Notes: a model not told the origin generated them from the letters alone. DNA of 64,000 bases from Escherichia coli (GCF_003334355.1 NZ_QOWP01000004.1), one strand, 5' to 3'. Positions 63,170-63,837 are shown, numbered from the stretch's first letter. A program made the numbers and translations.

Positions 63170-63837
63170 AAACAGAACTGTACCTCGTTTAACCCGAAAT
63201 CTGTTATCACATACAACGTTAATTATGGCAAGCCATTTTTAAACATGTCTCGATCAGACGCACAAATCTCGATACGTCTTCCACTTTTTTTGCACACTTA
63301 TGCAACGGAATACGCGCCGATATATCATTGTGCTTAACCTTGCCAGTTCAGGCAGATACTTAAACTGGCGTAGTTTCTAACATAGTTCAATAAGTTCAGT
63401 TGTTCCAGGCCAGTGGGAGAAGTTATTACATAGTGCGTGCAATATCACATTTTTTGCTATGCAATGAATAAAAAGTTATATCACTTTTTCTCATAAAACA
63501 GTCAGTTAACGGCTATCAATTACCCTAAAGAGAAGTCAATCCCCAAAGGGATTGAAAATTTAAAATAAGAAAAATTGATGAATGAGCAAAAAATCAAGAG
63601 AGAAACGTTTCGCTAATAAATAATACCACGCTTAATCACAAATCCGATGTAAACATCCTAATAAATTAATGAGGAAAATATCTTTTTCTGATATCCCGTT
63701 ACGCAAATAAATAATATGATAATTATTTGAAGTCAGACCAGAGTTTTAATTTGAAGCAGTTGCACCATGGCAGTGCGTATAATCAGGATGAATTGAGTAA
63801 CCCTTCAACGACGGGGTTACTCAAGATTGAGGAAGGA

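Follow-up and report, generated by a model that had tools for sequence, protein, structure and literature searches.

The AT-rich spacer upstream of Escherichia coli yobF-cspC is probably a multi-input control region, and its 8-bp hairpin most likely a chance, strain-variable feature

The genes rlmA, cspC, yobF and yebO lie on the minus strand toward the end of the window, by which we mean the whole stretch of 64,000 nucleotides of E. coli DNA that was analyzed (NZ_QOWP01000004.1), and a spacer of 668 bp separates yebO from yobF (Table 1). The spacer has a GC content of 0.355 (35.5%) compared to 0.492 (49.2%) for the whole window, and no ORF longer than 28 aa lies wholly within it. A sequence-only reading of this DNA had described an AT-rich gap of about 670 bp lacking a convincing ORF, and its size, its composition and the lack of internal ORFs and family matches bear this description out. 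Seven positions in the spacer differ between the window and MG1655, one of them being an extra A at 63587; a window coordinate below 63588 equals the NC_000913.3 coordinate minus 1844422, and one above it the NC_000913.3 coordinate minus 1844423.

Table 1. Features of the yebO-yobF spacer and flanking genes, in window coordinates.
Feature	Position	Strand	Remarks
rlmA	61829-62638	minus	in the locus at the window end
Rfam cspA thermoregulator match (RF01766)	62729-63189	minus	135.7 bits vs gathering score of 78
cspC	62804-63013	minus
yobF	63026-63169	minus
yebO-yobF spacer	63170-63837	minus	AT-rich, without gene; published H-NS and RpoD holoenzyme sites (genomic SELEX)
Two overlapping proximal promoters and starts	63195-63251	minus	published starts, promoter matches
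Promoter TTGCCA-17-GATAAC	-35 63231-63226, -10 63208-63203, start 63195	minus
Promoter GAGACA-18-(TG)CATAAT	-35 63251-63246, -10 63227-63222, start near 63217	minus	extended -10 match
Conserved block GCATAAGTGTGCAAAAAAAG	63286-63303	minus	GCATAAnTGTGCA in 43/77 regions; 63294 3' end inside
Published RNA 3' end	63294 (1907716)	minus	Adams 2021 (PMC7815308); 125 nt upstream of yobF
Promoter-like block TGGAAC-17-TATGTT	63379-63407	minus	hexamer conservation 0.72 and 0.78
CRP site agTGCGTgcaataTCACAttt	63432-63452		in vitro footprint; core centre 63441.5; conserved stretch 63430-63475
Perfect 8-bp inverted repeat, 4-nt loop	63536-63555		within the spacer's most variable stretch
Promoter-like pair TTGCTC-16-TATTTT	63562-63589	minus	consensus match only; weak, moderately conserved
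Conserved LacI-family-type palindrome	63599-63614		yobF strand AGCGAAACGTTTCTCT; centre 437 bp upstream of yobF ATG
9-bp IS1 target duplication in some E. coli strains	63769-63777		window itself without IS1
mgrB-yebO transcript end: perfect 11-bp hairpin (I3)	63793-63824	minus	primary 3' end 63789/63790
yebO	from 63838	minus

Four ORFs were compared with NCBIfam, two of 68 and 73 aa that overlap the edges of the spacer and two internal ones of 24 and 25 aa; none had a meaningful match, the single match obtained being far below the cutoff (E 0.15). ARAGORN found no tRNA in the spacer, nothing is annotated within it in MG1655, and Rfam searched at a permissive threshold gave, besides the edge overlap of a cspA-type match, only a CRISPR-repeat match at the 8-bp hairpin, which we attribute to chance (E 0.19, below the gathering score). 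A plus-strand ORF of 12 codons (63579-63617) is frameshifted in K-12 through the A-run polymorphism at 63587, and the ATG of a minus-strand ORF of 24 codons (63254-63328) is missing in E. albertii. Judged by family support, cross-species conservation and the tRNA model, the spacer contains neither a protein-coding gene nor a tRNA. The 68-aa ORF, which begins with GTG and occupies 63131-63337 on the plus strand, runs antisense to the start of yobF and its promoters. The same N-terminus recurs in other genera; beyond it the ORF diverges or changes frame. With no family match beyond the far-below-cutoff level (E 0.15), this ORF looks more like a shadow cast by conservation of the yobF strand than like a gene.

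The two ends of the spacer are accounted for by published transcript maps. At the yebO end, Term-seq 3' ends at 1908212/1908213 (63789/63790), classed as 'primary, yebO', lie 4-5 nt past the 11-bp hairpin in all three conditions analyzed (LB OD600 0.4, LB OD600 2.0 and M63); this hairpin folds at -15.5 kcal/mol (z -4.5). At the yobF end, SMRT-Cappable-seq gives a yobF-cspC transcript running from a TSS at 1907617 (window 63195) to 1907153, and Term-seq places the 3' end of the cspC terminator at the same 1907153 (window 62731). The TSS at 1907617 is also given for yobF-cspC in a sigma-S ChIP-seq table, and a Salmonella yobF::sfgfp fusion begins at the equivalent of window 63217. Of the two overlapping promoter matches found here, TTGCCA-17-GATAAC is the one named in Shimada 2014 (PMC3946193). 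Promoters yobFp1 and yobFp2 are already published, and an RpoN holoenzyme SELEX peak at 1905652 maps to window 63206. Conservation in 73 non-Escherichia species is 0.85-0.92 for the two proximal promoters and 0.85-0.99 in the rows around them, the downstream 100 bp of the spacer being almost invariant across the family. The main yobF-cspC leader is thus 26-48 nt long (26 nt from the 63195 start), and this is the leader on which OxyS and CyaR are reported to act. With the main start at 63195 and the second near 63217, most of the gap lies outside the leader of the main mRNA.

These maps agree with the earlier expectation that the spacer holds the yobF-cspC promoters, the documented ones (TSS 1907617; fusion at 63217) being located in its last 100 bp or so. 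The accompanying expectation of a long leader has to be divided. No main TSS was found hundreds of bases upstream of yobF, the main start being 26 nt before the ATG, and the main leader is nowhere near 670 nt; a longer leader is nevertheless backed indirectly by a conserved promoter-like block, by the 3' end at 63294, by Salmonella data and by yebO read-through, all of which are considered below. Just upstream of the proximal promoters, at 63249-63264, lies the nearly invariant sequence TTTGTGCGnCnGATCGAGACA. A half CRP-like motif within it, TGTGC-N6-TCGAG, has its centre 61.5 bp upstream of the start at 63195 and is missing from the published set of footprinted CRP sites.

The yobF-cspC transcript passes the membership threshold of the cspA thermoregulator family in Rfam, with a match that spans yobF, cspC and the cspC terminator. 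Because the match runs from 63189 through the terminator, the yobF ORF is located inside a cspA-type 5' UTR. The transcript thus fits the cspA model over this whole length and differs from cspA in that the cspC leader carries the yobF ORF, cspA having no such ORF. Since the match extends no more than 20 nt into the spacer, the other 650 bp are not explained by it. Some features of yobF itself vary among genera: two single-base deletions shorten the ORF to 15 codons in Kosakonia (L031 4812-4967, and L036; alignment A1), and a single-base insertion alters the C-terminus of YobF in Lelliottia and Klebsiella. The yobF DNA is 94% identical across genera and shows no codon periodicity. This degree of identity without periodicity, despite the changes to the ORF, suggests from the alignments that conservation applies to a cspA-like RNA leader more than to the YobF peptide. 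A further published Term-seq 3' end, at 1907479 (window 63057; LB OD600 0.4 and M63), lies inside yobF, 44 nt upstream of cspC, and hints at processing or attenuation between the yobF and cspC ORFs.

We gathered 80 related loci with YebO as the query and aligned 77 upstream regions, conservation being expressed as the match to the E. coli base in 73 non-Escherichia species of Enterobacteriaceae. A spacer of 440-744 bp with 32-51% GC precedes yobF in all 76 of the related loci measured, and four conserved blocks common to the 73 species lie 100-450 bp upstream of yobF. The block nearest to yobF is the one that contains the 63294 3' end. The next, a conserved stretch at 63374-63410, is promoter-like and reads TGGACG-17-TATGGT in most genera; TATG[GT]T[AT][AG]AAA is present in 49 of the 77 regions, 206-230 bp from the yobF ATG. 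Its -35 hexamer in E. coli is weak (3/6), and transcription from it is predicted to start near 63371-63372, for a leader of some 200 nt.

Upstream of this distal promoter-like block lies a CRP site that was footprinted in vitro by Footprint-seq (2026 preprint, PMC12871828), and yobF is a listed CRP target in genomic SELEX (PMC3105977). The published 'centre' of the site, 1907867, is 3 nt from the centre given by the printed sequence, and we have used the sequence-based centre. By this measure the core is centred at -69.5 to -70.5 from the predicted start, class I sites being centred near -61.5, -71.5, -82.5 or -92.5. A footprinted CRP site about 70 bp upstream of the predicted start would correspond roughly to the arrangement of class I CRP-dependent promoters. 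It differs from these in that the start is a predicted one, the second half-site is weak (TGCGT), and the site is conserved mainly in three genera, Escherichia, Salmonella and Citrobacter, and poorly elsewhere. The most distal conserved stretch, 63558-63620, begins with AGCGAAACGTTTCTCT and includes the promoter-like pair TTGCTC-16-TATTTT, whose predicted start, 63555, is the first base of the 8-bp hairpin. In most other genera the block at 63562-63589 is a direct repeat, CTGTCAT-N4-TTTCAT, which resembles a Pho box there and only weakly so in E. coli. The conserved blocks were also compared by eye with sigma-54, sigma-E, sigma-32, PhoP-box, NtrC, IHF, NsrR and Fur sites, and in each case the match was too poor.

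Several published data sets bear on transcription upstream of the short leader. Of the Term-seq tabs, just the second contains the 63294 3' end; to judge from the sequence of conditions in the paper, this tab represents LB OD600 2.0. The end has about 265,000 reads there, compared to about 46,000 at the yebO 3' end in the same tab (PMC7815308). Ends were retained in that study if a published start site, and not a stop codon, came first upstream, or if a start lay within 200 nt (PMC7815308). SMRT-Cappable-seq shows a yebO-yobF-cspC read-through transcript from the yebO start and no start at 19077xx-19079xx, so that the distal promoter would yield little full-length mRNA in those growth conditions. 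The Cappable-seq supplements give no coordinates in the spacer, and a sigma-S run-off array signal, 'IG1905616_1906284-f', was left out of the evidence, its strand being ambiguous. In Salmonella, 1893683 is the published position of a 'yobJ-cspC TSS'; two Tn5 insertions, 1893511 and 1893502, are described as 'in the 5' UTR', and a third, at 1893137, is in cspC. By our own arithmetic, the only start compatible with these coordinates is one corresponding to window 63350-63559, or 180-390 nt upstream of yobF, a range that includes the predicted start at 63372 and excludes those at 63195 and 63217. The 63294 3' end and the Salmonella TSS together indicate that there is some transcription upstream of the short leader. 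The 3' end at 63294 could alternatively originate from yebO read-through followed by processing.

The palindrome in the most distal block is of the LacI family type. In E. coli it is identical at 15 of 16 positions to AGCGAAACGTTTCGCT, the central 16-mer of the rbsD operator (TCAGCGAAACGTTTCGCTGA in MG1655), and it thus has the sequence expected of an RbsR operator. The sequence CGAAACGTTT is found in 69 of the 77 aligned upstream regions, at a median distance of 454 bp from the yobF ATG, and the palindrome is invariant in seven E. coli strains. Over the 69 species, the mean match is 13.6 of 16 positions to the RbsR operator, compared to 9.4 for Cra and 10.0 for PurR, the latter two being symmetrised consensuses; the Cra and RbsR operators share the core GAAACGTTTC. 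Besides its 15/16 identity, the palindrome resembles the rbsD operator of RbsR, a LacI/GalR regulator, in that the core CGAAACGTTT is invariant in the 69 species. It differs in two respects: its right half-site is degenerate, with TCT, TAT or GCT where the operator has CGC, and it is located about 410 bp upstream of the main start instead of over the promoter. From this resemblance we tentatively propose, while considering it rather improbable, that 63599-63614 may be a working operator for RbsR or a close LacI-family relative, which would tie CspC to sugar availability. If so, the palindrome would exert its effect over a distance of about 400 bp, either through DNA looping or via a promoter further upstream, and would also represent a direct link from RbsR to CspC and could help to explain why a Salmonella screen for growth on succinate yielded both rbsR and cspC mutants. 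The authors of that screen put the rbsR effect down to RpoS, possibly via rbsD mRNA, and found RpoS unchanged by deletion of cspC; for these reasons the link can be offered as a conjecture only. We found no mention of an RbsR-type palindrome upstream of yobF in the literature on this region. A 20-nt direct repeat of 90% identity, CGTTTCGCTAATAAATAATA (63606-63625) and CGTTACGCAAATAAATAATA (63697-63716), 91 bp apart, overlaps the palindrome. In the copy at 63697-63716, the palindrome's right half is repeated together with its AT-rich flank; this copy is located in a stretch that is poorly conserved across genera.

The 8-bp hairpin had been singled out by the sequence-only reading as a possible regulator site or structural RNA element. 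A perfect inverted repeat, tcaatccc-caaa-gggattga, is indeed present, one base away from where it was first placed (63536-63555, not 63537-63556). Its fold energy as RNA is -12.0 kcal/mol for the minus strand and -11.2 kcal/mol for the plus strand, with z about -3.9. Among Markov-1 simulated spacers, 9.3% had one or more perfect 8-bp inverted repeats with a loop of 3-8 nt. The whole window contains 32 such repeats compared to about 6.8 expected by chance, so that spotting one in 64 kb is unremarkable. In the 73 non-Escherichia species, the 20-nt row 63538-63557, which includes most of the hairpin, matches the E. coli base at 0.27, and the row 63518-63537, with the last two bases of the hairpin, at 0.04. 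The hairpin was found in none of the other genera examined, and it is missing in three Escherichia lineages: a divergent 'E. coli' species representative (L003), E. albertii and Escherichia sp. E1V33.

Variation within E. coli is also concentrated at this position. Among seven strains, 5 of the 38 variable columns of the spacer fall inside the 20 nt of the hairpin; each of these changes breaks a pair, and no compensatory changes were found in these strains. K-12 lacks the outer pair, and the B2 strain NC101 and three other strains have the hairpin with internal mismatches or a deletion. The whole spacer is present at 97-100% identity in 5,424 of 5,426 complete E. coli genomes. An exact 36-mer around the hairpin is present in 1,799 of them, with any match in 1,896, and the perfect form occurs in at most about one-third (~35%). 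The 121 nt around the hairpin gave a megablast match in only 3,174 of the 5,426 genomes, compared to 5,424 for the full spacer. The stretch 63510-63557 is a local polymorphism hotspot within a spacer that is otherwise 97-100% identical in E. coli. Because the hairpin varies among E. coli strains and is missing in related species, it is most likely a chance feature, and it has no function maintained by selection, though it might conceivably have a lineage-specific role in the one-third or so of strains that carry it. The proposal of a regulator site or RNA element is unsupported on the same grounds, the hairpin being polymorphic without compensation, absent in related species and not the site of any mapped 3' end. 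Pairing is not kept across relatives as it is in a conserved structured RNA. It had been stated beforehand that an untranscribed region and a hairpin not conserved in related genomes would refute the proposal; the hairpin is not conserved, while the region does not prove to be untranscribed.

Two specific functions for the hairpin were weighed against a chance origin. It could act as an intrinsic terminator or attenuator on the yobF strand, halting yebO read-through or a transcript from an upstream block before yobF. Such read-through exists, the stem is stable (-12 kcal/mol, z -3.9), and a consensus scan calls the hairpin terminator-like with the tail CTTCTCTTTA; like Rho-independent terminators, it combines a stem with a 4-nt loop and a tail rich in pyrimidines. 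The lax scan, however, gives 2 sites where 1.5 are expected, and the stem of 8 bp, with 4 G-C pairs, is followed by a tail, CUUCUCUUUA, of 6 U in 10 in which the U tract is interrupted. A terminator would also be recognized by a mapped 3' end just past its stem, and there is none: the published Term-seq data contain no 3' end between 1907716 and 1908212 in LB OD600 0.4, LB OD600 2.0 or M63, and so nothing ends at the hairpin in these three conditions. It thus differs from Rho-independent terminators in its lack of a continuous U tract, of a mapped 3' end and of conservation, being absent in related species and broken by uncompensated polymorphisms in most sampled E. coli lineages, and we consider termination at this site very unlikely. 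The same polymorphisms bear on a reading of the repeat, TCAATCCC-N4-GGGATTGA, as the DNA operator of a dimeric regulator. It is a perfect palindrome inside a regulatory region, as such an operator might be, but 5 of its 20 bp are polymorphic in seven strains, K-12 lacks the outer pair, the perfect form occurs in at most ~35% of genomes, and no other species conserves it, whereas the conserved palindrome 50 bp away is invariant. We regard an operator here as scarcely probable, and chance as the most likely origin of the hairpin.

Two further alternatives concern the spacer as a whole and its 63294 3' end. An unannotated sRNA of about 80 nt, extending from near 63372 to 63294 and made in stationary phase, might have a function of its own instead of being a leader by-product. 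The abundance of the orphan 3' end in reads, compared to the yebO end, the conserved promoter-like block and CRP site upstream, and the ability of the stretch to form two hairpins are consistent with such an RNA. It would, on the other hand, lack an intrinsic terminator at its 3' end, 63372-63304 is poorly conserved outside Escherichia, the z-score of the fold is only -1.95, and there is no Rfam match, all of which make it unlikely. As for the origin of the spacer, 32 of the 80 related loci carry after yebO a gene for a protein of 331-335 aa with a metallo-beta-lactamase fold, in Enterobacter, Lelliottia, Leclercia, Kosakonia, Buttiauxella, Cedecea, Phytobacter and others. The protein has the motif HNHYDH (for example, L009 3308-4303 and L029 3310-4317, among 32 of loci L003-L082); E. 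coli, Salmonella, Citrobacter and Klebsiella lack the gene and show no remnant of it. An AT-rich region that binds H-NS might derive by decay from a gene that had been lost or acquired horizontally, this one being the candidate. tblastn with the protein finds nothing in the spacer, however, and the genomes that carry the gene still have an AT-rich spacer of 510-550 bp with the same conserved blocks before yobF, which makes descent from such a gene extremely improbable. Since the spacer and its blocks are kept across the loci, even beside the extra gene, the long AT-rich region is old and maintained, and not debris.

We therefore favor, as likely, a view of the spacer as the yebO terminator followed by a multi-input control region of yobF-cspC, neither a long main leader nor a structured RNA. 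The published maps show the mgrB-yebO transcript to end at 63789/90, just past the 11-bp hairpin, and the main mRNA to start at 63195, with a second start near 63217; according to this model, constitutive initiation of the sigma-70/sigma-S type at these starts gives the bulk mRNA. In vitro, H-NS and RpoD holoenzyme bind the AT-rich DNA at several places. The four conserved blocks 100-450 bp upstream of yobF would add conditional inputs. Among these would be a distal promoter, with its predicted start near 63372 and the CRP site about 70 bp upstream, that is active mainly on entry into stationary phase. At 63294 most of its transcripts would terminate or be trimmed; the remaining minority would proceed to an mRNA whose leader is about 200 nt long. 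A putative LacI-family operator at 63599-63614, most like that of RbsR, might supply a sugar-related input. We infer the distal-promoter and operator steps from conservation and one published 3' end. The 8-bp hairpin lies in a fast-changing stretch between two conserved blocks and would have no maintained role.

A region of this kind has precedents. Shimada 2014 (PMC3946193) marked the spacer 'HNS' by genomic SELEX, with several RpoD peaks in the '670 bp spacer', and binding of CRP, sigma-S and RpoN/NtrC has been reported for the yobF-cspC spacer. It resembles the multi-promoter, H-NS-bound spacers of stress genes (e.g. mngB-cydA), which are likewise long, AT-rich and co-directional, with several RpoD peaks and an H-NS site. 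Nothing essential sets it apart from these, the distal blocks of yobF being unusually conserved for a position 200-450 bp upstream. As an ordinary complex promoter region of a stress gene, it is of a known kind, and its main elements (promoters and CRP, H-NS, sigma-S and RpoN sites) are already published. The main outcome of the analysis is thus a negative one: a hairpin that is most likely due to chance and varies among strains, in a gap that is probably a normal promoter region. Its by-products are a base-level map of conservation of the spacer across the family and a candidate operator not mentioned in the literature found on the region. Loss of the RNA chaperone CspC has repeatedly been selected for, both in ageing colonies of E. 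coli and in succinate-grown Salmonella, so that control of its operon matters for stress physiology.

The yebO end of the spacer is interrupted in some E. coli strains. At least 53 of the 5,426 complete E. coli genomes, including many from clinical isolates, carry an IS1 element between 63777 and 63778, shortly past the 3' end of yebO in the downstream direction. Insertion of IS1 at this position would cut yebO read-through into yobF-cspC.
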